Shown piece after piece: positions 6,843-63,731 of a DNA stretch of 64,000 nucleotides; the stretch's first letter is position 1; each line of letters begins with the position of its first letter. The stretch lies in assembly GCA_023269855.1 (NCBI GenBank), contig JAGDWP010000050.1, positions 8,503 through 72,502 of the forward strand, in the 5' to 3' direction. The position numbers and the translations under genes were made by a program. This stretch comes from Nitrososphaerales archaeon (lineage in GTDB: Archaea; Thermoproteota; Nitrososphaeria_A; Caldarchaeales; Wolframiiraptoraceae). A model generated the notes under the pieces. The model ran no database searches. It worked only from the letters and a program-made list of their open reading frames with translations, and had not been told where the DNA came from.

Positions 6843-7292
6843 ATGAAGTCTGATAGAATTATATATAAGCCAGGTGTCTACAGTAGGGAGGATATTGACT
6901 TTAACGCTCTTTTCAAGCAGTTTCTAGACACAGATTTCGATAATGAAGTAGGTGCACTTGCAATTTTCATAGGCAAAGTGAAGAGCTCAAGTAGAGAAGG
7001 AGTCAGAGTCTCATATCTAGAGATTGAAACCTATAAAGAACATGCTGACAAGACTCTAGAGAAAATCTGTAGAGAAGTAAAGGAGAAGCATGGTTTAGCT
7101 TATGCTGGTATATGGCACTTAATTGGAAGATTCAGTATTGGTGAACCATTAGTAATGGTTATCGCCGCAGGGAGGAGCAGACAGGAAGTTTTTAGAGCAT
7201 TACCTGAATTAGTTGAAAGATATAAGAAGGAGCCCGCTCTCTTCAAAAGAGAAGTTTACGTTAATGGAAGTTATAGATGGTTAGAAGAGTGA
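6843..7292 (+). CDS. moaE: molybdopterin synthase catalytic subunit MoaE
   Basis: MoaE-like pattern 'ALAIFIGKVK…VSYLE…HLIGRFSIGEPLVMV'; convergent with MoaD-like gene. Confidence 0.6.
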   Translation: MKSDRIIYKPGVYSREDIDFNALFKQFLDTDFDNEVGALAIFIGKVKSSSREGVRVSYLEIETYKEHADKTLEKICREVKEKHGLAYAGIWHLIGRFSIGEPLVMVIAAGRSRQEVFRALPELVERYKKEPALFKREVYVNGSYRWLEE

Positions 7293-7586
7293 ACCTCCAG
7301 ATATCGGTGGAATTATTACTAGTTCATCTCCATCTTTAAGAATAGTTTCTCCATACTTAGCTCGAGGGATTACATCACCATTTAAAGCAACATTTATCCC
7401 ATCTCTAAGTTCGCCCGCCGAGTTTAGAAGATACTTCCTTAAACCACCATACCTTTTAAACAATTCATCTAGAAACTCGTAAATAGTTGAGTTCAAGGGA
7501 AGATCAATCTCCTCTTCTACCTTTTTAGTTTCCTCCCTTATGAATGCAAGATACCTAGTCTTAATCTTAGGCATACTACATACCAA
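7281..7586 (-). CDS. MoaD/ThiS-like ubiquitin-fold sulfur carrier (SAMP-like) with 3-residue tail after GG
   Basis: '…LKDGDELVIIPPISGG' MoaD C-terminal signature followed by SLF before stop; likely start at internal Met (MPKIK…). Confidence 0.65.
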   Translation of the reverse strand: MVCSMPKIKTRYLAFIREETKKVEEEIDLPLNSTIYEFLDELFKRYGGLRKYLLNSAGELRDGINVALNGDVIPRAKYGETILKDGDELVIIPPISGGSLF

Positions 7587-12924: not shown

Positions 12925-12937
12925 TTTTATTTTATAA
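12925..12937 (+). promoter_or_regulatory. TATA-box-like element (tttttattttataa) for leaderless tpiA transcript
   Basis: A/T TATA-like octamer about 20-25 bp upstream of second in-frame ATG (12955); it overlaps the ORF-track ATG at 12937, which is therefore unlikely to be the start. Confidence 0.35.
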
Positions 12938-13659
12938 TGTTTTATTGTTTAAGTATGCTGAATTTCCCGATAATCGTTTTGAATTTTAAAGCTTATTCTG
13001 AAGCTGTTGGAGAAAAATGTGTTAAGCTGGCTGAGTATGCTGAGGAAGTTTCTAGAGAATATGGGATGAGTATAGTTGTGGCCCCTCCAGTGACCATGTT
13101 AAGCAGGATAGCTAACTCTGTCAGTATCCCAGTCTTTGCACAGCATGTTGACCCACATCTTCCTGGAAGCTGGACAGGTAGCATAACAGTTGAAATGATA
13201 AAAGAAGCTGGAGCAGCAGGCTCACTAATAAATCATTCAGAGAAGAGAATGATACTATCAGATATCTCTATTGTAATTAAGAGACTTAGAGAAGAAAAAT
13301 TAGTTTCTCTACTCTGTACAGATACTGTTGAGACGACTAGAGCTGGAGCAGGCTTGTCTCCAGACATGATAGCTATAGAGCCCCCGGAACTTATAGGTAC
13401 AGGAATACCTGTCTCAAAAGCTAAACCTGAAATCGTTATAGGAGCAGTGGAAGCAGTTAAGAAGATTAATTCTTCAATACATATTCTGTGCGGTGCAGGA
13501 ATTTCCTCCGGTGAAGATGTAGGTAGAGCTATTGAGCTGGGAACAGAAGGGGTACTACTTGCAAGCGGATATGTAAAAGCTAAAGATCCTAGACTAATTC
13601 TTTCATCGATGGCTGAATCCGCTCTAAAAGCATGGGAGAAAACTCAATCTTCTAAGTGA
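12937..13659 (+). CDS. tpiA: triosephosphate isomerase (archaeal type); probable true start at ATG 12955
   Basis: Archaeal TIM pattern '…IVLNFKAY…', 'AIEPPELIGTG', 'GAGISSGEDV'; ~233 aa from second ATG. Confidence 0.85.
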   Translation: MFYCLSMLNFPIIVLNFKAYSEAVGEKCVKLAEYAEEVSREYGMSIVVAPPVTMLSRIANSVSIPVFAQHVDPHLPGSWTGSITVEMIKEAGAAGSLINHSEKRMILSDISIVIKRLREEKLVSLLCTDTVETTRAGAGLSPDMIAIEPPELIGTGIPVSKAKPEIVIGAVEAVKKINSSIHILCGAGISSGEDVGRAIELGTEGVLLASGYVKAKDPRLILSSMAESALKAWEKTQSSK

Positions 13660-14030
13660 ATAGTTATTGATTCTCCTTTTGAATTATATGCATGAATATC
13701 TTTTATGTCATTGTAGGGTGGAGTGAGAATGAGCATTATGCTTCCAATGAAATGATTCAAGTCTTCCAATGAGGGGCGAGGATTTCCAGATGGATGGGAG
13801 TGAGCTAAACCGATTATAGTGAAATCTAATGGGAGAAGGTCGAATCTAAAATATGCTGATGATTCATCGTGTTGTGATAGAGGAGCAAAAAGAATCTCAT
13901 CTATCCTAACAGTGTCCCCCTTCTTTCTACCTCTAAGAAGCATAAGCATCTCTCGAGGATGAGTATTCTGGGCTAACTCAAGCAAGCTATAAGCTACATT
14001 ATTTGGTAAAACAACCTTTCTCAACATCAT
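13644..14030 (-). CDS. JAMM/MPN+ metalloprotease (archaeal JAMM1-like)
   Basis: Exact JAMM motif E…HSHPSGNPRPSLED (HxHx7Sx2D); 128 aa like SAMP-deconjugating JAMM1 proteins. Confidence 0.75.
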   Translation of the reverse strand: MMLRKVVLPNNVAYSLLELAQNTHPREMLMLLRGRKKGDTVRIDEILFAPLSQHDESSAYFRFDLLPLDFTIIGLAHSHPSGNPRPSLEDLNHFIGSIMLILTPPYNDIKDIHAYNSKGESITIHLED

Positions 14031-14244: not shown

Positions 14245-15702
14245 TTGAGAAGTATGTCAAGCGAAAGCCAGCAAGCAATAAGTTTGAAGAAGTTTACGAA
14301 TTTTACTGAGTGGTTTGACGAACTACTGCTGAATGCGAGGATCGCTGATAACAGGTTCCCTGTTAAAGGCTTCATAGTCTATCTTGAGAATGGAGCATAC
14401 ATTATAAAGAGGGTTAGGGAAATGCTTGAAGAAAAACTTGAGAAAACAGGGCATAAGCTAATGATGTTCCCCCTTGTAACTACTGAAGAACTCTTCGCAA
14501 AAGAAGTAGAGCATATAAAAGGATTCTCTACCGAAGTCTTTGTTATAGAGCAGAAGAGTGAGAAAGGTGCAGAACGCCGATTAATTATTAGACCGACTTC
14601 TGAAACCATAATGTACCCTATGTTCAAGTTATGGATTAGGAGTCACGCTGACCTCCCCCTCAAAGTCCATCAAAGCGTCAACGTCTACAGATATGAAACG
14701 AAAGCAACTAGAGCATTATATAGAGTCAGAGAGATACCGTGGAATGAAGCTCACACAGCACATGAAACACCAAGCGATGCAGAAAAGCAAGTCAAAGAAG
14801 CTATAGAGATATACAGCCAAGTGCTTAAAGAGCTTGGGATAAGCTTTCTACTCTTGAAGAGACCGGACTTCGACAAGTTTGCAGGAGCAGTCTACTCAAT
14901 AGCTTTCGATAGCTGGAACCCTGATGGAAGAGTTAACCAAGTGGCCACAGTCCACAATCTAGGCAGGAATTTCTCAAAAGCATATGATATAACATTTGAG
15001 AAGAAAGATGGTTCAAGAGGATACGTCTACCAACTATGTTACGGATTTGGATACAGTAGGGTTCTAGCAGCTATAATCGCACAGCATGGAGATGATAGAG
15101 GTCTAGTTCTTCCACCACCTGTAGCACCTACACAGATAGTGATAATCCCAATCCTATTCAAAGGACAAGAGAAAGAAGTAATGGATTATTCAAGAAGCAT
15201 ATTTAATGAGTTAAAAGATAATTGGAGAACAGTACTAGATGATAGAGAGGATATTACTCCTGGAGAAAAATTCTACTATTGGGAGATGATGGGCGTCCCA
15301 GTAAGAGTAGAAATCGGTCCAAAAGAAATACTGGAGGAAAAAGTAACATTAAATCGAAGAGATACTCTTGAGAGAATACAATGTAGCAGATCTAATCTAG
15401 TTGAGGAAGTTAAGAAACTTATGGAGAACTTAATGCAGAACCTACGAGAGAGGAGTGAGAGAATGCTCTACAAACTGATAATCGATGCTACAACATTAGA
15501 AGAAGCAGCGAAGGCCATAGACAATAAGTGTATAGCTAGAGTCGCATGGTGTAGTTCAATAGAATGTGCAGAGAAAATCAAGGAAAAAGCTGGAGGAGAA
15601 ATCAGAGGAGAAAGATACGATATAGCTGAACATCCTGATAGACCTTGCATAGCTTGTGGACAACAAGCAAAGACAATAATATATGTAGCTAGAGCATATT
15701 AA
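14245..15702 (+). CDS. proS: prolyl-tRNA synthetase (archaeal/eukaryotic type)
   Basis: Class II aaRS core, ProRS-like N-terminus, C-terminal Zn-binding 'CIACG'; 485 aa. Confidence 0.8.
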   Translation: MRSMSSESQQAISLKKFTNFTEWFDELLLNARIADNRFPVKGFIVYLENGAYIIKRVREMLEEKLEKTGHKLMMFPLVTTEELFAKEVEHIKGFSTEVFVIEQKSEKGAERRLIIRPTSETIMYPMFKLWIRSHADLPLKVHQSVNVYRYETKATRALYRVREIPWNEAHTAHETPSDAEKQVKEAIEIYSQVLKELGISFLLLKRPDFDKFAGAVYSIAFDSWNPDGRVNQVATVHNLGRNFSKAYDITFEKKDGSRGYVYQLCYGFGYSRVLAAIIAQHGDDRGLVLPPPVAPTQIVIIPILFKGQEKEVMDYSRSIFNELKDNWRTVLDDREDITPGEKFYYWEMMGVPVRVEIGPKEILEEKVTLNRRDTLERIQCSRSNLVEEVKKLMENLMQNLRERSERMLYKLIIDATTLEEAAKAIDNKCIARVAWCSSIECAEKIKEKAGGEIRGERYDIAEHPDRPCIACGQQAKTIIYVARAY

Positions 15703-56310: not shown

Positions 56311-56562
56311 CTACTTTCGTATGGTTATTTTCCATAATGCTTCTTCTAAACGCTCAAGGGTGAGTACTTGACATCCTTTTCTGATAGCTGCCTCCTTTAT
56401 CGTTTCACATGATGGTTGATTATCAAATAGTACTTCTAATACTTCTCCTTCCTTAATCTTATCTAATGCTTTAACAGTATATAACACTGGGTATGGACAG
56501 GGAAGCCCTATTATCTTTAGGATATATCTACCTGATTCAAGCTGAACCAATTCTACTACCAT
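56311..56562 (-). CDS. tusA: TusA-like sulfurtransferase
   Basis: 'GLPCPYPVL' CPxP motif; overlaps 3' end of sulfite reductase-like gene by 26 nt. Confidence 0.75.
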   Translation of the reverse strand: MVVELVQLESGRYILKIIGLPCPYPVLYTVKALDKIKEGEVLEVLFDNQPSCETIKEAAIRKGCQVLTLERLEEALWKITIRK

Positions 56563-58027
56563 AATTGTATCCTCTCCTCATCAATTCATCAGCAAATTCA
56601 TTAAAGTTTTCATAACTACTTTCAATAAATAATCTGAGTATATCTTCTACTACCAAGGATACATGCTCAGACGGGATATTCTTCACTAATAATTTCGCAA
56701 GCTTTGAATTACTTCCACGTACGTATAAGTTGTAGCATGTAATAGTCTTTTCATTCTCTCTAATTATAGTCGATTGTAGACCAATGTCGGAGACGATGTG
56801 CTGAGCACAACTGTTCGGGCATCCACTAATAGATATAGTTATGTCCAGTTTACTTATCTGATCTTTTAATTCATCTTCTAAGTTCTTTAGTAGAGTGACC
56901 GCTCTCATCTTACTACTCTCACTAGTTTTACCGCAGAAATCGCTTGGACAAGCTCTCACTCTATATTTAATTAACGGTTGACCAGGGTCTAACCCTATCT
57001 CCTTCAGTTCTTCTTTAACTCTATCAAGTTCTTCTCTTGGAATGTGGGGAATTATTATTTTCTGTGAAGGAGACACCCTAATCTCAGAACTATATCTTTC
57101 AGATATGTTGATTATCTCTTTAAACTGGTGAACATTTAATAGCCCTGTAAAAGTAGGAACGGTCAAGGAGTATAACCCTTGAATATTTTCAGGCACTATT
57201 ATATCATGCTCTCTCCAAACAATGGATAGGTAGCTAGCGTCAAATATTGGAAAAGGTTTACCTATACGTTCCTCTATCATATCTTTTATCTTTTCAACAC
57301 CTAATTCTTTTACAAGCCATTTGAACCTTGACATGCTCTTTCTTTCTCTGAACCCATGTTCGTTATAGATTTCTACAACGGTTTTAATAAATTCGAGAGA
57401 TTCTCGTAGTGGAATAAAGATGTTCAGTGGTTGTGCTATGAATGGTGGGTAACCTATGCTTCCACCTATAAACGGTGTGAAACCTAACCCATGATCTGTC
57501 TTTACAGCGATTAATGCTAGATCGTTTACTTCAGGTTTAATGCAATGGATTGGGCATGCTGAAATCCCTATCTTAAATTTTCTCGGTAGGTTAAGGTATT
57601 CTTTCTTTCCAGTAAAAAATCTGACTACATCTCTAACTATTGTATATGTTTCGAATAATTCACCATTCTGGATCCCTGTAAATGGGCATGTTGTTATATT
57701 TCTGATATCACCGTACCCTGCCTTCGGATAATGTTGACCACACATATCTGTGTATAATCCAGCTTCTTCAAGCTTGCTAAAAACTTCGATAGAGTCTTCA
57801 TCCCTAATCCAATGAAGCTGTATATTATGTCTAGTGGTAACTTCAAGATATCCTCTACCATATTTTTCTGATAATTCAGCAATTGTCCTCGCTTGGTCTA
57901 TTGTTAAGATCCCTCCTACAACCTTTATGCGGAGGAAGTGTTTAGAGCCATTTCCAGATTCAGAGCCTAAAGCGTATCTTCCAAGAAATCTATCTAGTTC
58001 ACTTACCTGGATCTGTAGGTTTGCCAC
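56537..58027 (-). CDS. ferredoxin-type sulfite/nitrite reductase hemoprotein (siroheme-[4Fe-4S])
   Basis: 'TTCPFTG…GISACPIHC' and 'ISGCPNSCAQH' siroheme/4Fe-4S cysteine clusters; two NIR_SIR repeats. Confidence 0.75.
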   Translation of the reverse strand: MANLQIQVSELDRFLGRYALGSESGNGSKHFLRIKVVGGILTIDQARTIAELSEKYGRGYLEVTTRHNIQLHWIRDEDSIEVFSKLEEAGLYTDMCGQHYPKAGYGDIRNITTCPFTGIQNGELFETYTIVRDVVRFFTGKKEYLNLPRKFKIGISACPIHCIKPEVNDLALIAVKTDHGLGFTPFIGGSIGYPPFIAQPLNIFIPLRESLEFIKTVVEIYNEHGFRERKSMSRFKWLVKELGVEKIKDMIEERIGKPFPIFDASYLSIVWREHDIIVPENIQGLYSLTVPTFTGLLNVHQFKEIINISERYSSEIRVSPSQKIIIPHIPREELDRVKEELKEIGLDPGQPLIKYRVRACPSDFCGKTSESSKMRAVTLLKNLEDELKDQISKLDITISISGCPNSCAQHIVSDIGLQSTIIRENEKTITCYNLYVRGSNSKLAKLLVKNIPSEHVSLVVEDILRLFIESSYENFNEFADELMRRGYNYGSRIGSA

Positions 58028-58084: not shown

Positions 58085-59269
58085 TTGGAAAAAGTGAACA
58101 ATAATTATGGTGAATTGGAAACTAATAACTTGATGATCTCAAGACCGCTCATCGAAGACATTATAGAATGCTTAAGGAGGGACTACCTAAAACCTATGAA
58201 AAATAAGGTTATAAAACTTAATGATGTCTCAATCATCGTTAAACTCGAGTATCCTGAAGACTTCTTGACTGATCCTTTGAGAACTATAAAGCGGAAACCT
58301 GCTAGCCTACTCTTTGAGGATGTATTTAGTAAAGGGTTGCTTAAACAAGGAAGAACAATTATCACTGCTTCTTCAGGTAATTTTTTGAGAGAGCTAGCTC
58401 TAATAGCTCTCAACCGTGGATTTAAGATTATAGGTGTTACACCTCCGAGGATTCCATATGAAAGCTTAAAGATCTTAACATCACTTGGAGTCAACATACT
58501 CCATATTAGTGAAGAATATGATCTGTGTCCAAGAGAGACGACAGTTTTCTATACTAGAAGCTTAGCTGAGAGGTATAGATTCAATCTTGTAAACATAGAC
58601 CAGTATAATAGCTGGCAAAATGTTATGGCCCATTTGTACATGACATGGAATGAAATAAAAGACCTCGGAGAAATAGATTATGCCTGCATACCTCTAGGAA
58701 GTACTGGAACATTCATGGGAATTACTACTGGGTCTAATCTCGAAAAATGGGATATGAAAATTATAGGAGTCCAGCCAACAAAATATCATCATATTCCAGG
58801 CGTCCATCACATAGTTGGAGATTGCGAATGGAGTCCGGAAATATTCACTCCTCTAATCAGTAGAGAAATAGTAACAGTCGACGACGTCGATGCGTATGCT
58901 GGCTTAATAATGTTATGGAAGAACGGTATACCTGCAGGTCCATCAACAGGAATGACCTTCATCCAAGCAGTTAAGCTTGCTGAAAAAGTTAAAGAAGGCA
59001 GGATCCTAACCATATCCGCGGACAGCATCTTTGCTTACAGAGATTATGTACTAGAATACGTAAAGGAGATAAAAGAACAGATAATTGATAGATATCCTGA
59101 ACTAGCTGAAGAATACGTAAGATATGTTGAATGGTTAAAGAAGCTTCCAGGCCTCGATCAAAGAATGGAATTGATTAAGAAATTATATAGGGTGGCGGAT
59201 GAAGCCGGTAGAGTTTACAGATTTGATAATGAAGAAGATTTGCTGAAAGAGATAAAGATATCAACTTAA
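58085..59269 (+). CDS. PLP-dependent Trp-synthase-beta-fold enzyme, CysK/CysM-like, divergent, with ~110-aa C-terminal extension
   Basis: 'IITASSGNFLRELALIALNRGFKIIGVTP' (TSGN loop) and glycine-rich 'GSTGTFMG'; putative PLP Lys in 'TIKRK'. Confidence 0.5.
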   Translation: MEKVNNNYGELETNNLMISRPLIEDIIECLRRDYLKPMKNKVIKLNDVSIIVKLEYPEDFLTDPLRTIKRKPASLLFEDVFSKGLLKQGRTIITASSGNFLRELALIALNRGFKIIGVTPPRIPYESLKILTSLGVNILHISEEYDLCPRETTVFYTRSLAERYRFNLVNIDQYNSWQNVMAHLYMTWNEIKDLGEIDYACIPLGSTGTFMGITTGSNLEKWDMKIIGVQPTKYHHIPGVHHIVGDCEWSPEIFTPLISREIVTVDDVDAYAGLIMLWKNGIPAGPSTGMTFIQAVKLAEKVKEGRILTISADSIFAYRDYVLEYVKEIKEQIIDRYPELAEEYVRYVEWLKKLPGLDQRMELIKKLYRVADEAGRVYRFDNEEDLLKEIKIST

Positions 59270-59348
59270 AAATGTGGAGGAGGGAAAAAGTTATAAGCAA
59301 GAAAAATTTGATGAATGACCTAGGAGGTTAGGAGAACTATCAGAGAAA

Positions 59349-60572
59349 ATATATCTAAAATGTAGAGATTGTGGGAAATCTTATCCTCCTCTTCTCCAAT
59401 ACATATGCCCAAGCTGTTTTGGTGCATTAGATGTTGAATACACAGGTTTAGAAGACCTTAGGATAAATCCCCAAGAGTTATCAACTAGGAGAAAAGATAT
59501 CTGGAGATACATAGAGCTGCTACCTATACTAGATTCTAATAACATCATATCGCTGGGAGCAGGATATACTGGGTTGATTCCTTCCACTAGATTGTCTAAG
59601 AAGCTAGGCTTAAGAAAACTATACTTAAAAGAAGATTTTACAAATCCAACTCATTCATTTAAAGATAGAGCTGCAAGCGTAGCTGTCTCTAAAGCTTTGG
59701 AATTCAGATTAAATGCTGTTGGATGCGCTTCAACAGGAAATCTTGCAGCTGCTGTCTCAGCCCGTGCTTCTAGAGCAGGTTTACCCTGCTACATCTTCGT
59801 TCCTAAAGGTGTAGAAAAAGAGAAACTATCACATGCGTTATCCTATGGTGCTAGACTCATTATAGTAGATGGAACATATGATGAAGCAAACTGGATGGCG
59901 GCACGATTCGCAGAAGAATACAACGTAGGCATAGTAAACGTGAACATTAGACCATACTATGTTGAAGGATCTAAAACGCTTGCATACGAAATATGTGAAC
60001 AACTTGGTTGGAGAACACCTGACCACATAATTATCCCAATGGCTAGCGGTGCCTTATTAAACGCTATAGATAAAGGGCTGAGAGAATTAAAGACCATAGG
60101 CTTAATCGAGGGTGAAGTAAGAGTTTCTGGAGTCCAACCTGAAGGTTGCTGTCCAATAGTATCAGCATATAAAGAGAATACTGAGTATATTAAGCCAGTC
60201 CGTGAAATAAATACAATAGCAGTGAGTCTCGCGATAGGCAACCCAGGAGACGGTGTATACGCTTTAAGGACTATAAGGAGAACTAAAGGTGTCGCAGTAG
60301 CAGTCAGTGATAGAGAGATTCTTGAAGCTGTAAAAGAGCTAGCACAATTGGAAGGATTATTCGTAGAGCCTGGAGCTGCAGTGACAGTTGCAGGTCTTAA
60401 GAAGATGATTGAAGAAGGATCTGTAGATAGAGATGAAGAGGTTGTCTGTCTTCTCACGGGTTCTGGTGTAAAGACGCCATCTATCATCCAAGAATATACT
60501 ATCAACCCTATCACAGTTAAACCTTCCACTATTGAATTATCTAAAATATTGGAGGTGAGAAAGACTGGCTAG
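59349..60572 (+). CDS. threonine-synthase-like PLP enzyme (ThrC/MetM-like) with N-terminal zinc ribbon; homology-supported extent, track start TTG 59574 is internal
   Basis: PLP Lys 'HSFKDRAAS'; upstream in-frame 'YLKCRDCGKSY…YICPSCFG' zinc ribbon open from stop 59316-18 with no ATG/GTG/TTG; ATA at 59349. Confidence 0.7.
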   Translation: MYLKCRDCGKSYPPLLQYICPSCFGALDVEYTGLEDLRINPQELSTRRKDIWRYIELLPILDSNNIISLGAGYTGLIPSTRLSKKLGLRKLYLKEDFTNPTHSFKDRAASVAVSKALEFRLNAVGCASTGNLAAAVSARASRAGLPCYIFVPKGVEKEKLSHALSYGARLIIVDGTYDEANWMAARFAEEYNVGIVNVNIRPYYVEGSKTLAYEICEQLGWRTPDHIIIPMASGALLNAIDKGLRELKTIGLIEGEVRVSGVQPEGCCPIVSAYKENTEYIKPVREINTIAVSLAIGNPGDGVYALRTIRRTKGVAVAVSDREILEAVKELAQLEGLFVEPGAAVTVAGLKKMIEEGSVDRDEEVVCLLTGSGVKTPSIIQEYTINPITVKPSTIELSKILEVRKTG

Positions 60573-60573
60573 G

Positions 60574-60861
60574 ATTAAGCTCATTCTTCCATCGGTTCTA
60601 GCTGAGGGTGGTGATAGAAATAGAGTGCTTGAAGCTTCTACGCTTAGAGACGTTATCGAGTATTTATGTAAGATAAAACCTGAATTGAGAGATCGGATAA
60701 TCTCTCCGAACGGCGAACTAAATAGATTCTTTAATTTCTATGTGAATGGTGTTAATGCGTATTTTATAAACGGAGCTGATACCTTGTTGAAGGATGGAGA
60801 CGAGGTTTCAGTCATACCTGCTCTAGGGGGAGGACAAAGTGGAAACAAGAAACATTACTGA
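60574..60861 (+). CDS. CysO-type ubiquitin-like sulfur carrier protein (ThiS/MoaD fold), Gly-Gly-Gly followed by 8-residue tail
   Basis: 'LNRFFNFYVNGVNAYF…DGDEVSVIPALGGG' closely parallels M. tuberculosis CysO C-terminal half; beta-grasp N-terminus 'IKLILPSVLAEGG' lies upstream of track GTG start (ATT at 60574). Confidence 0.65.
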   Translation: MKLILPSVLAEGGDRNRVLEASTLRDVIEYLCKIKPELRDRIISPNGELNRFFNFYVNGVNAYFINGADTLLKDGDEVSVIPALGGGQSGNKKHY

Positions 60862-61900
60862 TGAAGAATTCGAGCTATATTCTAGGCAGATAGTCCTCAA
60901 TGTCATCGGTTTTGAGGGACAGGAAAAATTAAAGAATTCAAGAGTTGCAATCGTAGGGCTGGGAGGCTTAGGGTCTCCTATTGCTATGACTTTAACAGCT
61001 ATGGGTGTAGGATATATTAGGATCATCGATAGAGATGTAGTCGAGAAATCTAACCTGCATAGACAACACTTATACACATTTAAAGATATAGGAACACCGA
61101 AAGTTGAAGCAGCCTCAAAGAGATTGAAGGAGATGAACCCATACGTTGAGATCGACCCCTACCCTGTATACATTGATGATTCAACTGCTCTGGAAGTTGT
61201 TAGAGATGTAGACTTAGTACTAGATGGACTGGACAATTTTAAGGCTAGAAGAGCTATCAATAAAGCATGCTATAAGCTATCAATACCGTACATATATGCT
61301 TCAGCTATAGAGACATACGGTATGGTTACAACTTTAATCTCTAGAGAGGGGCCCTGCCTTGAATGTATTTTTCCAAATATTTCAGACCAGAACCTGCCCA
61401 CATGCTCTACAGTAGGTGTACATCCATCAATACTCCAAATAATTTCAAGTATTGAAGTCTACGAAGGCGTCAACATATTAATGGGGAGGAAGTCAAGACT
61501 TTCTGGAAAACTTTTAGTATATGATTTAGAAGATTTATCAACTACATTCTTAGACATAAAAAAATCTCCCAATTGCTCTGTATGTGGAGGGAGAGAAGTA
61601 GTCAAGGAGACAGTCACATATCCACAAATCGAGGAAACATGCTCTAGAGAAGGCAGAATCACGTTTATCATTAATCCAGGAAGGATAGACCCAATTGAGA
61701 TCCAGAAATTAGCTAAGATTATTTCTGAGCATGGATACGTGATATCTAATATTAGTGAGCTAGGGTTAACATTTAGATTAGATGGTAACATTATCTTTAG
61801 CATATTGAAGACAGGGGTTGGGATAATAGAAGGTGCACACTCTAGAGAATATGCTCTCAAAGTTTATGAAGACATATTGAAAAAAGTTATAAACTTTTAG
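60839..61900 (+). CDS. E1-like activating enzyme (MoeB/ThiF/MoeZ family) with unassigned C-terminal domain
   Basis: 'LYSRQIVL', 'VAIVGLGGLGSP' nucleotide loop, two CxxC pairs (CLECIFP…PTCS; CSVCGG); GTG start overlaps CysO-like tail. Confidence 0.8.
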   Translation: METRNITDEEFELYSRQIVLNVIGFEGQEKLKNSRVAIVGLGGLGSPIAMTLTAMGVGYIRIIDRDVVEKSNLHRQHLYTFKDIGTPKVEAASKRLKEMNPYVEIDPYPVYIDDSTALEVVRDVDLVLDGLDNFKARRAINKACYKLSIPYIYASAIETYGMVTTLISREGPCLECIFPNISDQNLPTCSTVGVHPSILQIISSIEVYEGVNILMGRKSRLSGKLLVYDLEDLSTTFLDIKKSPNCSVCGGREVVKETVTYPQIEETCSREGRITFIINPGRIDPIEIQKLAKIISEHGYVISNISELGLTFRLDGNIIFSILKTGVGIIEGAHSREYALKVYEDILKKVINF

Positions 61901-61916
61901 AACTTTAACATACGTA

Positions 61917-63731
61917 ATGAGTGAAAAACTTTATTGTTACACAGGTAAAGTTCTCAGAGTTAATTTAACAAACAGAAGCTTTAAGATTGAACCGACTAGA
62001 AGAGACTTTGTTGAGAAGTATATTGGTGGAAGAGGTTTAGGCATCAGATACTTACTTGAGGAGATAGCTCCTAAGATTGATCCATTAAGTCCTGAGAATA
62101 AGCTGATTATTTCAACGGGTCCGCTTACTGGGACAGTTGCTCCCCTCTCAGGTAGGTACCCGATCGTGACTAAGTCTCCTTTAACAGGCACTGTCTGTGA
62201 TAGTTATAGTGGATCATATTTTGGTGTAAGGATGAAGTATGCTGGATACGATTTAATGATAGTTGAGGGTAGATCAAGCAAGCCTGTATACGTTGAGGTT
62301 TCCGAGAAGGGTGCAGAATTCCATCCTGCTGAGCATCTGTGGGGGTTAGGCACGCTAGAAACATCAAAAAAGATTAAGGAGGAGTTGAGAGATGAGAATG
62401 CAAGCGTGTTAGCTATAGGACCTGCTGGAGAGAACCTCGTAAGATTTGCATGCGTAGTTGATAGTGGTTTATGGGTTCATGGGAGAGGAGGGACTGGAGC
62501 AGTATTCGGCTCTAAGAATCTAAAAGCTTTAACGATAAGAAACATTAAGGGTGAAGTCAATCTATATGATCCTGATGGTTTTAGAAAGACTGTAGTAGAC
62601 TTGACTAGGAATAGAGTGAAGACTTCTGAGAATCTATGGGCTCAGACTGATGGCACACCATTAATAGTTGACTTATCTCATAATGCAGGAGTCCTCCCAA
62701 CCTACGGCTTCACCTCAGGAGCATATGAATACCATGACAGAATAAATACTGATAGAGTAAAAGAAGCTACAGCCAAGAAGTATGCATGCCCCTACTGTCC
62801 ACTAGCTTGTAAGAGGATACTTAGATTTGATTCTAGATTAATCAAGTCTCCAGAATATGAAACCTTAGGAATGATTGGCTCAAACACAGGTCTTAGAAGT
62901 CTTAGAGATGTTGCAGAAGCAGCTGAACTCGCTACAGACCTAGGCATGGATACCATATCGCTTGGGGCCACGATAGGGTTTACAGTTAAACTATACGAGA
63001 AGAAATTAATCACAGAAAAAGATTTTAATGGATTGAAACCTTCCTGGAGCAGTAATGAGTTCATAATCGAGATATGCAAGATGATAGCGTATAGGAGGGG
63101 GCTTGGAGACCTACTAGCTGAAGGCACTAGGAGAGCTGCTGAAAGACTTGGTGGAGAAGCTCTGAGAGAACGTATAGACGTGAAGGGCTCTGAGATACCT
63201 GCATACGATCCTAGAGGAACTTATGGTATGGCCTTAGCGTACGCGACAGCAGATAGAGGTGCATGCCATCTAAGAGCGTGGGCAGTAGCATTTGATGCAT
63301 TTGGAGAAATGGATCCATATAGCTTTGTTGGGAAAGCCCAGCTTGTCAAAGACTTACAAGACTTGAATAGTATTAAATGGTCTCTAATAATATGTGATTT
63401 CTGGCTCTCAAGCTATGAAGACTTGGCAAAACTACTAAAAGATGCGTTAGGGAGAGAATACAAAGTAGAAGAGTTAAGATTAATCGGGGAAGGAATCTGG
63501 AATATTTCTAGAATCTTCAATATTAGAGAAGGCTTCAAGAGAGAAGATGATACTCTTCCTCCAAAGATGTTTTACGAACCTCTAAGAGGCGGAAAGACTG
63601 ATGGAAAAACAGTCGACCTAAACCAGTTCAAAGAATCACTTACAGAATACTATAAGCTGAGAGGATGGGATGAAGAAACTGGGAAACCTAAAGAAGAAAC
63701 ATTGAAGAAGCTGGAAATAGAAATACACTAA
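61917..63731 (+). CDS. aldehyde:ferredoxin oxidoreductase family enzyme (second paralog)
   Basis: AOR-family N-terminal and 'CPYCPLACKR' cluster cysteines; 604 aa. Confidence 0.85.
   Translation: MSEKLYCYTGKVLRVNLTNRSFKIEPTRRDFVEKYIGGRGLGIRYLLEEIAPKIDPLSPENKLIISTGPLTGTVAPLSGRYPIVTKSPLTGTVCDSYSGSYFGVRMKYAGYDLMIVEGRSSKPVYVEVSEKGAEFHPAEHLWGLGTLETSKKIKEELRDENASVLAIGPAGENLVRFACVVDSGLWVHGRGGTGAVFGSKNLKALTIRNIKGEVNLYDPDGFRKTVVDLTRNRVKTSENLWAQTDGTPLIVDLSHNAGVLPTYGFTSGAYEYHDRINTDRVKEATAKKYACPYCPLACKRILRFDSRLIKSPEYETLGMIGSNTGLRSLRDVAEAAELATDLGMDTISLGATIGFTVKLYEKKLITEKDFNGLKPSWSSNEFIIEICKMIAYRRGLGDLLAEGTRRAAERLGGEALRERIDVKGSEIPAYDPRGTYGMALAYATADRGACHLRAWAVAFDAFGEMDPYSFVGKAQLVKDLQDLNSIKWSLIICDFWLSSYEDLAKLLKDALGREYKVEELRLIGEGIWNISRIFNIREGFKREDDTLPPKMFYEPLRGGKTDGKTVDLNQFKESLTEYYKLRGWDEETGKPKEETLKKLEIEIH

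Follow-up and report, generated by a model that had tools for sequence, protein, structure and literature searches.

A CysO-like sulfur carrier of Caldarchaeales extended beyond its Gly-Gly by a recent loss of the stop codon

The CysO-like sulfur carrier encoded in the stretch of 64,000 nucleotides analysed here (the window, from a hot-spring Nitrososphaerales archaeon) continues beyond its Gly-Gly with a short tail, and this tail goes back to a recent T-to-C change that turned the TAA stop codon after the GGG into CAA. Stop-loss tails of this kind are recurrent in the clade, and in another lineage TAA and CAA are still polymorphic. By comparison of the orthologous sequences, the tail is thus the result of a stop-loss and not a conserved or built-in pro-peptide. 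On balance, we consider it likely that the tail is real and recent and that it is trimmed, meaning that the carrier is made with the tail, cut to ...GGG, and then used. As a single case a tailed carrier would matter little, because tails after the Gly-Gly are common and trimming by JAMM proteases is established, including in a related archaeon. The present case is a well-defined natural instance of a stop codon that switches between TAA and CAA at the end of a ubiquitin-fold carrier, with a hydrolase of the pathway as the likely buffer, and it suggests that ubiquitin-like proteins can acquire pro-forms even where no pro-peptide is selected for.

The carrier gene and its start codon

The carrier gene, the parts of it discussed here, and its neighbours are located as follows.

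60565..60861, forward strand: CysO-like sulfur-carrier gene of the ThiS/MoaD type, 98 codons plus stop (Pfam ThiS, match to 3DWG_C, AF2 model)
60826..60834, forward strand: the GGG codons (ggg gga gga), of which the last two Gly are the reactive Gly-Gly, as read from the sequence
60835..60861, forward strand: the eight-codon tail QSGNKKHY with its TGA stop, beginning with CAA in place of the TAA found in the sister lineage
60839..61900, forward strand: E1 adenylyltransferase of the ThiF/MoeB family, 353 aa, GTG start (Pfam ThiF, E 1.6e-74)
59319..60572, forward strand: threonine-synthase-like PLP enzyme (ThrC-like) with N-terminal zinc ribbon (Pfam PALP, TIGR00260 thrC), a candidate MetM-type homocysteine synthase
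58085..59269, forward strand: CysM/SbnA-like PLP enzyme (Pfam PALP, weak NCBIfam cysKM/cysM), a candidate carrier-dependent cysteine synthase
56537..58027, reverse strand: NirA-type sulfite or nitrite reductase (Pfam NIR_SIR, NIR_SIR_ferr)
about 56311-56562, reverse strand: TusA-like gene after the NirA-type gene, taken from the gene list of locus L015, whose sequence matches the window at 100% identity

The carrier frame opens at 60559 and translates directly into ERLARIKLILPSVLAEGG...DGDEVSVIPALGGGQSGNKKHY*. Its C-terminus reads ...PALGGG-QSGNKKHY, with eight codons beyond the GGG that begin with CAA (Gln) at 60835-60837 and end before the TGA stop at 60859-60861. Thus, the window allele has no Gly-Gly at its translated C-terminus, the GG being followed by eight residues. 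The E1 starts with GTG at 60839 in another frame than the carrier, and the two genes overlap by 23 nt. An earlier interpretation of this DNA (the sequence-only reading) had already described the frame as running eight codons past the diglycine and overlapping the E1 start out of frame, and this can be read directly in the sequence. The bases of the GGG codons, GGGGGAGG (60826-60833), at the same time form the Shine-Dalgarno sequence for the E1, whose GTG follows 5 nt downstream. The GGG residues are invariant across all carrier orthologues, and the alignment to CysO ends on the last two Gly.

In the sequence-only reading the carrier began at 60574, which is an ATT codon. Judged from the orthologous sequences, translation probably starts at CTG 60565 instead, the position at which the orthologues have their TTG start, and ATT 60574 is the less likely choice. 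A Shine-Dalgarno-like sequence, GGAGGTGA at 60552-60559, lies 5 nt upstream of this CTG, the 5' end of the carrier overlaps the stop codon of the ThrC-like gene, and the sister lineage L012 has CTG at the carrier start position, too. Between the in-frame stop TGA 60556-60558 and GTG 60625 the carrier frame contains no ATG, GTG, or TTG. The stretch from CTG 60565 to the annotated start is conserved at the protein level with several synonymous differences between lineages, and in the AF2 model the first ten residues have a pLDDT of 94 and include strand beta1 (residues 2-7). The mechanical ORF start at GTG 60625 was rejected because it would drop strand beta1, which is conserved and confidently modelled.

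Carrier identity and operon

Sequence and predicted structure identify the protein as a CysO-type sulfur carrier of the ThiS/MoaD family, in agreement with the CysO-like assignment of the sequence-only reading. The carrier matches Pfam ThiS (PF02597) with 47.4 bits (cut-off 22.5), and its best sequence match in the PDB is Mycobacterium tuberculosis CysO in the CysM-CysO complex (3DWG_C, E 4.7e-9). The AF2 model (pLDDT 86.7, pTM 0.78) shows a beta-grasp fold, for which Foldseek returns CysO on top, followed by SAMP1, MoaD, and Urm1. Residues 89-98, comprising the last two Gly and the tail, are modelled with a pLDDT below 50.

The partner E1 of the carrier overlaps the 3' end of its gene, the ThrC-like and CysM-like PLP enzymes are encoded upstream, and this order is kept in all loci. 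The operon is found in every orthologous locus with TusA and the NirA-type reductase on one strand and the CysM-like enzyme, the ThrC-like enzyme, the carrier, and the E1 on the other, often followed by an aldehyde:ferredoxin oxidoreductase gene downstream of the E1. The E1 matches NCBIfam PRK12475 over its full length, its N-terminus aligns with those of the orthologues, and it carries an extra C-terminal domain of about 90 residues. The ThrC-like gene adjoins the carrier in all orthologous loci and overlaps the carrier start in all lineages. It has an open frame from 59319 with a conserved upstream region; its listed TTG start at 59574 would remove the conserved ribbon. The enzyme matches the threonine synthase 2ZSJ with an E-value of 4e-70; a search for a solved MetM structure by which to class it turned up true threonine synthases only. 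The PDB matches of the CysM-like enzyme include M. tuberculosis CysM.

We infer the roles of the ThrC-like and the CysM-like enzymes from homology and position only. By analogy, the operon layout fits protein-thiocarboxylate routes to cysteine and homocysteine. In such a pathway, the E1 would adenylate the terminal Gly-Gly of the carrier, sulfide from sulfite reduction would convert the adenylated carrier to the thiocarboxylate, and the two PLP enzymes would use this thiocarboxylate for the synthesis of cysteine and homocysteine. Accepting this assignment, the Wolframiiraptoraceae-type Caldarchaeales contain a conserved and so far undescribed operon that probably produces cysteine and homocysteine from sulfite via a protein thiocarboxylate.

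Origin of the tail

An orthologue search over 5.8 billion proteins resulted in seven clusters, all from Caldarchaeales (Aigarchaeota). Five of the seven end with ...PALGGG without any tail, one ends with GGGC, and one with GGGQLWRERL. At the DNA level, the window reads gga CAA aGTG, and the sister lineage L012 has gga TAA aGTG at the same site. In a tree based on the E1, the window pairs with L012 (80% identity), and the tailed L001 pairs with L009, which has a stop after the GGG. Therefore, tails arose at least twice. Separate from these two origins, an extra Cys codon follows the GGG in L006-L008. The populations L001/L002 and L100/L101 of this second lineage share 96.9% DNA identity over 6.3 kb. 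Across 93 nt at the site (45 nt on each side) the sole difference between them is CAA versus TAA. In addition, the 90%-identity cluster that includes Ca. Geocrenenecus arthurdayi has members with GGG ends as well as members with GGGQLWRERL ends. Where a tail is present its length and sequence vary between lineages, and its sequence is an out-of-frame reading of the 5' end of the E1.

The sequence-only reading had regarded the carrier as a pro-protein in need of proteolytic activation. When the orthologues are consulted for a conserved tail, it is missing in five of the seven clusters and in the sister L012; the orthologues stop at the GGG and the tail derives from a point change in the stop codon, the very origin which that reading had named as speaking against itself. 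What stands of the claim is that the carrier, if active, must be trimmed. What falls is the tail as a pro-peptide, given its recent origin by stop-loss that is documented by the five clusters, by L012, and by the CAA/TAA pair.

Extensions after the Gly-Gly in the family and in a second carrier

A family profile search against 1.84 billion cluster representatives gave 129 matches at E<=1e-10, and the best 150 representatives were classified by their C-termini. Among these best 150, 74 end at the GG, 40 have one to three further residues, 11 have four to 15, 21 have more than 15, and four are unclear. The extensions of more than 15 residues are fusions to E1-like and other domains. An extension after the Gly-Gly is an ordinary feature of CysO-like carriers, present in about half of the 150 representatives.

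The window contains a second tailed carrier of the ThiS family, which is missing from the sequence-only reading.

7281..7574, reverse strand: MoaD/SAMP1-like second carrier, 97 aa, ending PPISGG-SLF (NCBIfam moaD_arch and SAMP1 above cut-off)

This MoaD gene converges on the MoaE gene (6843-7292, forward strand) with an overlap of 12 nt. All 11 MoaD orthologues (72-100% identity) keep an extension after the Gly-Gly with the pattern [S/L][L/F/N]..., in nine of them as SLF, LLF, or SFF and in the other two as a longer tail. Read on the opposite strand, the tail codons tca ctc ttc taa are exactly the last MoaE codons tta gaa gag tga, and part of the conservation of the MoaD tail may therefore be imposed by MoaE. 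This weakens the conserved tail as an independent proof of obligatory processing; the tail is still found in every orthologue. The tungsten and molybdenum cofactor cannot be made unless MoaD is active. Since every MoaD of the lineage is tailed, the lineage would have to possess an activity that cuts after the Gly-Gly.

The JAMM protease in the window

13644..14030, reverse strand: JAMM/MPN+ metalloprotease of the AfJAMM type, 128 aa, motif E27...HSHPSGNPRPSLED (Pfam Prok-JAB), a candidate trimming enzyme

This is the sole JAMM in the window, 46.5 kb from the carrier cluster. Both the uniqueness and the distance of about 46 kb given in the sequence-only reading are confirmed; the gene is encoded on the minus strand. 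Its motif E...HSHPx7SxxD is intact (JAMM pattern E...HxHx7Sx2D), and E27 and HSHPSGNPRPSLED are invariant in 22 homologues. The protein matches AfJAMM (PDB 1OI0) with an E-value of 1.2e-15 when searched alone and 9e-25 with a profile. The profile search of the PDB, which reached AfJAMM, did not reach PfJAMM1 at E<=1. Against the NCBIfam desampylase model the protein scores 21.8 bits (cut-off 130), and CsJAMM, the carrier-precursor protease of Caldiarchaeum subterraneum, shares 25% identity over 44 residues with it (phmmer E 2.8e-4). By these comparisons, the window JAMM belongs to the AfJAMM clade and not to the subfamily shown to cut carrier precursors. To our knowledge, no substrate has been found for AfJAMM since its structure was determined in 2003, so that it counts as an orphan.

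The AfJAMM-type genes were compared on genome representatives, among which the species of the window is absent and the best match to its JAMM has 77% identity. Their context, with the JAMM between ProRS and TIM genes, is conserved throughout the Caldarchaeales and is also found in genomes whose carrier ends with GGG or GGGC. A C. subterraneum bin (L077) has an AfJAMM-type gene in this ProRS-JAMM-TIM context alongside CsJAMM. Linkage of AfJAMM-type genes to a carrier or an E1 within 10 kb is nearly absent, with a ThiS-family ORF in two and an E1 in five of 80 loci. Conversely, the called genes of 15 orthologous carrier loci (up to 10 kb flank where the contig allows) include no JAMM or other peptidase gene near the carrier cluster. 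A scan of metagenomes with CsJAMM gave six loci only, all of the Caldarchaeum lineage. The proposal that the JAMM at 13644-14030 is the partner of the carrier thus finds no backing, because the protease is of the AfJAMM type, lacks a neighbourhood link to the carrier in 80 genomes, and is present with or without the tail. By family and presence the window JAMM would be a legitimate candidate for the trimming, and nothing links it specifically to the carrier.

How the tail might be tolerated

With the stop lost by the T-to-C change, translation continues into the overlapping E1 gene and reads its first 23 nt in the wrong frame up to the next stop. Eight additional residues would prevent the E1 from adenylating the carboxylate of the Gly-Gly, and the carrier, if active, would therefore have to be trimmed. 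A CysO-type pathway should in any case depend on a hydrolase acting after the Gly-Gly, and such an enzyme may serve as the buffer. The same hydrolase would strip any C-terminal extension from the carrier, would release cysteine or homocysteine from it, and would mature the always-tailed MoaD. If it removes any extension, loss of the stop codon would be nearly neutral, and this requirement of the pathway may be the reason why tails come and go in the carrier family.

Whether the tailed allele exists and functions has to be judged from its distribution and its surroundings. It is hardly credible that the CAA arose through faulty sequencing or assembly and that the true gene has its stop behind the GGG. 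The window appears to be metagenome-derived, given the metagenome contig in the ENA (locus L015) that is 100% identical over 12.4 kb, and a single base decides the reading. However, the same tail sequence is found in this ENA assembly at 11x coverage and again in a separate JGI contig (P0242), which makes an assembly error unlikely, and the same kind of change was found independently in another lineage in two samples. It is more difficult to dismiss, if still rather unlikely, that the CAA allele works poorly or not at all. The tail would then block adenylation by the E1 with nothing removing it, carrier-dependent sulfur assimilation would be switched off in this strain, and the cell would obtain its cysteine and methionine by scavenging or by another route while the gene starts to decay. 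A TAA/CAA polymorphism within a species is what a segregating loss-of-function allele would produce and fits a mildly deleterious or a null allele equally well, and no protease was found linked to the carrier in the orthologous loci, the 80 JAMM loci showing next to no association with it. The CTG of the window carrier in place of TTG could also point to decay, being a non-canonical start. However, this CTG is common to L012 and is followed by the conserved but synonymously diverged N-terminus, so that it predates the tail and looks functional. The rest of the carrier gene and all neighbouring genes are intact, and the core of the carrier is under purifying selection (dN/dS of 0.04-0.15 in all pairs, with dS being saturated). 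Moreover, tail alleles arose independently at least twice and each is found in several datasets, and tails are seen in half of the family. Since its origin, the L001-type tailed allele, present in several datasets, has acquired a conservative I/V change, and the GGG-Cys form persists among assemblies with different stop codons. Together, these sequence data argue for the tailed carrier being a tolerated, functional allele; a young null allele is also possible.

Assuming a functional allele, the question is how the Gly-Gly becomes free. Following the sequence-only reading, the tail would be there on purpose, as a pro-peptide under which the carrier stays inactive until the JAMM at 13644-14030 removes it in trans, the two forming a dedicated pair of precursor and protease. 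We give very little credence to this, although the tail exists, the catalytic motif of the JAMM is intact, and pairs of precursors and JAMM proteases are known elsewhere. A tail that is absent in most orthologue clusters and the sister lineage, that varies in length and sequence, and whose sequence is dictated by the overlapping frame of the E1 does not look like a selected pro-peptide, and genomes whose carrier ends at GGG have the JAMM just as well, with an unchanged context. From the orthologous sequences, the pro-peptide is already largely refuted. The trimming might also be done by a carboxypeptidase or another peptidase that is not a JAMM and nibbles the disordered tail down to the folded core. 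The predicted disorder of the tail, the lack of a JAMM linked to the carrier cluster, and the lack of a demonstrated AfJAMM substrate would be consistent with this. We still regard it as improbable, because in all characterised cases a JAMM cuts precisely after the Gly-Gly and an exopeptidase would have no obvious reason to stop there. We prefer a recent tail that is removed by the hydrolase of the pathway.

What remains mildly interesting is which hydrolase acts after the Gly-Gly. It is possible, and we put it forward only tentatively, that the AfJAMM-type protease is the trans-acting enzyme that matures both MoaD and the CysO-like carrier, and a further role in freeing cysteine or homocysteine from the carrier is conceivable. 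If so, the fact that the protease is always there would account for the repeated origin and the persistence of stop-loss tails. In any case, the tailed MoaD and the CysO-like carrier are concrete candidate substrates for the orphan AfJAMM family. Another enzyme of the Mec+ or CsJAMM type encoded elsewhere in the genome may do the trimming instead.

Comparison with known systems

In mycobacteria, cysteine is made by a route comprising CysO, CysM, Mec+, and MoeZR, in which Mec+ hydrolyses the CysO-cysteine adduct (PMC3227635). CysO of M. tuberculosis is the best match of the window carrier by sequence and by fold, and CysM and the mycobacterial E1 have their counterparts in the CysM-like PLP enzyme and the ThiF-family E1 of the window operon. 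As in the mycobacterial pathway, a hydrolase acting after the Gly-Gly would be expected for the chemistry of the window. M. tuberculosis CysO ends at a free GG, whereas the window carrier has its tail of eight residues. In further contrast to the mycobacterial pathway, there is no adjacent JAMM in the window, the E1 has no rhodanese domain, and the operon adds the ThrC-like enzyme and the sulfite reductase.

The ThrC-like enzyme recalls the homocysteine pathway of Streptomyces, which consists of the ThrC homologue MetM, the carrier MetO, Mec, and MoeZ (Hasebe et al. 2024, as summarised in the preprint 10.1101/2024.10.14.618325). As far as that summary goes, both systems couple a threonine-synthase homologue to a ThiS-family carrier and an E1, with a need for a Mec-type hydrolase in the maturation of the carrier. 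Compared to MetM as portrayed there, the ThrC-like enzyme of the window strongly resembles true threonine synthases and has an N-terminal zinc ribbon, and its cluster contains no Mec.

Trimming of carrier precursors by JAMM proteases has been documented for QbsE/QbsD and proposed for CxnE/CxnF (PMC5925218). The tails that follow the GG in QbsE and CxnE are CF and SEAARAEESR, respectively, and are removed, or proposed to be removed, by the JAMM before adenylation. They belong to dedicated biosynthetic clusters with an adjacent JAMM, whereas in the window a lineage-specific tail is encoded at a distance of 46 kb from the JAMM. AfJAMM itself (AF2198, PDB 1OI0 / 1R5X), of whose clade the window JAMM is a clear member with an intact zinc-site motif, showed no activity on any substrate tested, and its biology was unknown at that time (PMC300881).

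The closest precedent comes from Caldiarchaeum subterraneum, which belongs to the same archaeal order as the window and in which carriers with extensions after the Gly-Gly are cut by a stand-alone JAMM in vitro. CsJAMM (Csub_C0703) cleaves the SAMP precursors Csub_C0702 and CsMoaD (Csub_C1603) in vitro, and CsRpn11 did not cleave the C. subterraneum SAMP precursors (Fuchs et al. 2018, PMC6043591). In CsMoaD, the GG is followed by YLKLGSLTPRWP (PMC6043591). The window MoaD shares 45% identity with CsMoaD, and the CysO-like carrier is 44% identical to the carrier domain of Csub_C0702 over the C-terminal part of that domain. The sequence-only reading had set the distant JAMM against the adjacent arrangement in bacteria. 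This contrast does not hold for the whole order, because the Caldarchaeum lineage has an operon of a CysM-like gene, CsJAMM, and the carrier; in the window, the JAMM is unlinked and of a different subfamily. The extensions in C. subterraneum comprise 12 and about 90 residues, compared to the eight residues in the window that result from a recent stop-loss. The precedent of JAMM-trimmed carriers invoked in the sequence-only reading is nevertheless sound, resting on QbsE/QbsD, on the proposal for CxnE/CxnF, and on the C. subterraneum proteins in vitro. By analogy to the latter, it is reasonable to assume that the carrier precursor of the window is trimmed as well.

Translation starts of the carrier and the ThrC-like enzyme

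At window position 60565, where its orthologues have their TTG start codon, the CysO-like carrier gene has a CTG, which is common to the window and its sister lineage (L012). A strong Shine-Dalgarno sequence (GGAGGTGA) is located 5 nt 5' of this CTG, and the codons following it are conserved at the protein level. The automatic carrier calls, which begin at GTG 60625, are therefore 20 codons late and drop strand beta1.

The threonine-synthase-like (ThrC-like) gene has an upstream extension:

59319-59573 (+), extension before the listed TTG start

The N-terminal zinc ribbon of the enzyme (CRDCG...CPSCFG) is conserved. Counted from the upstream stop or from the first of the 25 compared codons, no ATG, GTG, or TTG precedes the zinc ribbon in the window or in four of five further lineages, L012 being the exception. 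Upstream of the zinc ribbon, AGGAGGT or GGGGGGT is located 8-9 nt 5' of a conserved CTA/CTC, which is followed four codons later by ATA/ATT, and the NCBI assembly calls for this gene in two orthologous loci (L003 and L006) begin at this ATA/ATT.

Gene neighbourhoods

The carrier is followed by the E1 gene, to which two further features belong or adjoin:

61630-61900 (+), extra C-terminal domain of the E1 (residues about 265-353, about 90 residues, past the second CxxC pair)
61917-63731 (+), aldehyde:ferredoxin oxidoreductase, directly 3' of the E1

The extra domain is not a rhodanese, and a match to NCBIfam PRK12475 spans the E1 end to end. The oxidoreductase, which belongs to a tungsten-enzyme family, is also found directly 3' of the E1 in L003 and L006-L008. 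The Geocrenenecus-type loci L001, L009, and L011 lack it there.

The AfJAMM-type gene is flanked by triosephosphate isomerase (TIM) and prolyl-tRNA synthetase (ProRS):

13644-14030 (-), AfJAMM-type gene
12937-13659 (+) and 14245-15702 (+), flanking genes

The order ProRS-JAMM-TIM is conserved across the Caldarchaeales (17-21 of 80 loci), and in the same comparison was not found around the Bathyarchaeia or Nitrososphaerales homologues.

Residues beyond the diglycine in other carriers

The window encodes a second tailed carrier of the ThiS family, convergent with MoaE:

7281-7574 (-), MoaD/SAMP1-like carrier, C-terminus PPISGG-SLF
6843-7292 (+), MoaE

Its post-GG extension is kept in all 11 orthologues. 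The two genes overlap by 12 nt, the MoaD tail codons being the exact antisense of the four final codons of MoaE.

In the Caldarchaeum lineage, CsJAMM is part of an operon of CysM-like, JAMM, and carrier genes (L102, L104-L106). The carrier was detected in two loci of this lineage (L102 and L104), and in both it is fused, after the GG, to a conserved C-terminal domain about 90 residues long. The carrier of one Aigarchaeota lineage (L006-L008) ends in GGG-Cys, and the extra Cys codon is retained across assemblies with differing stop codons (TAG versus TAA). This end resembles the substrate of Mec+-type hydrolases, the carrier-cysteine adduct.
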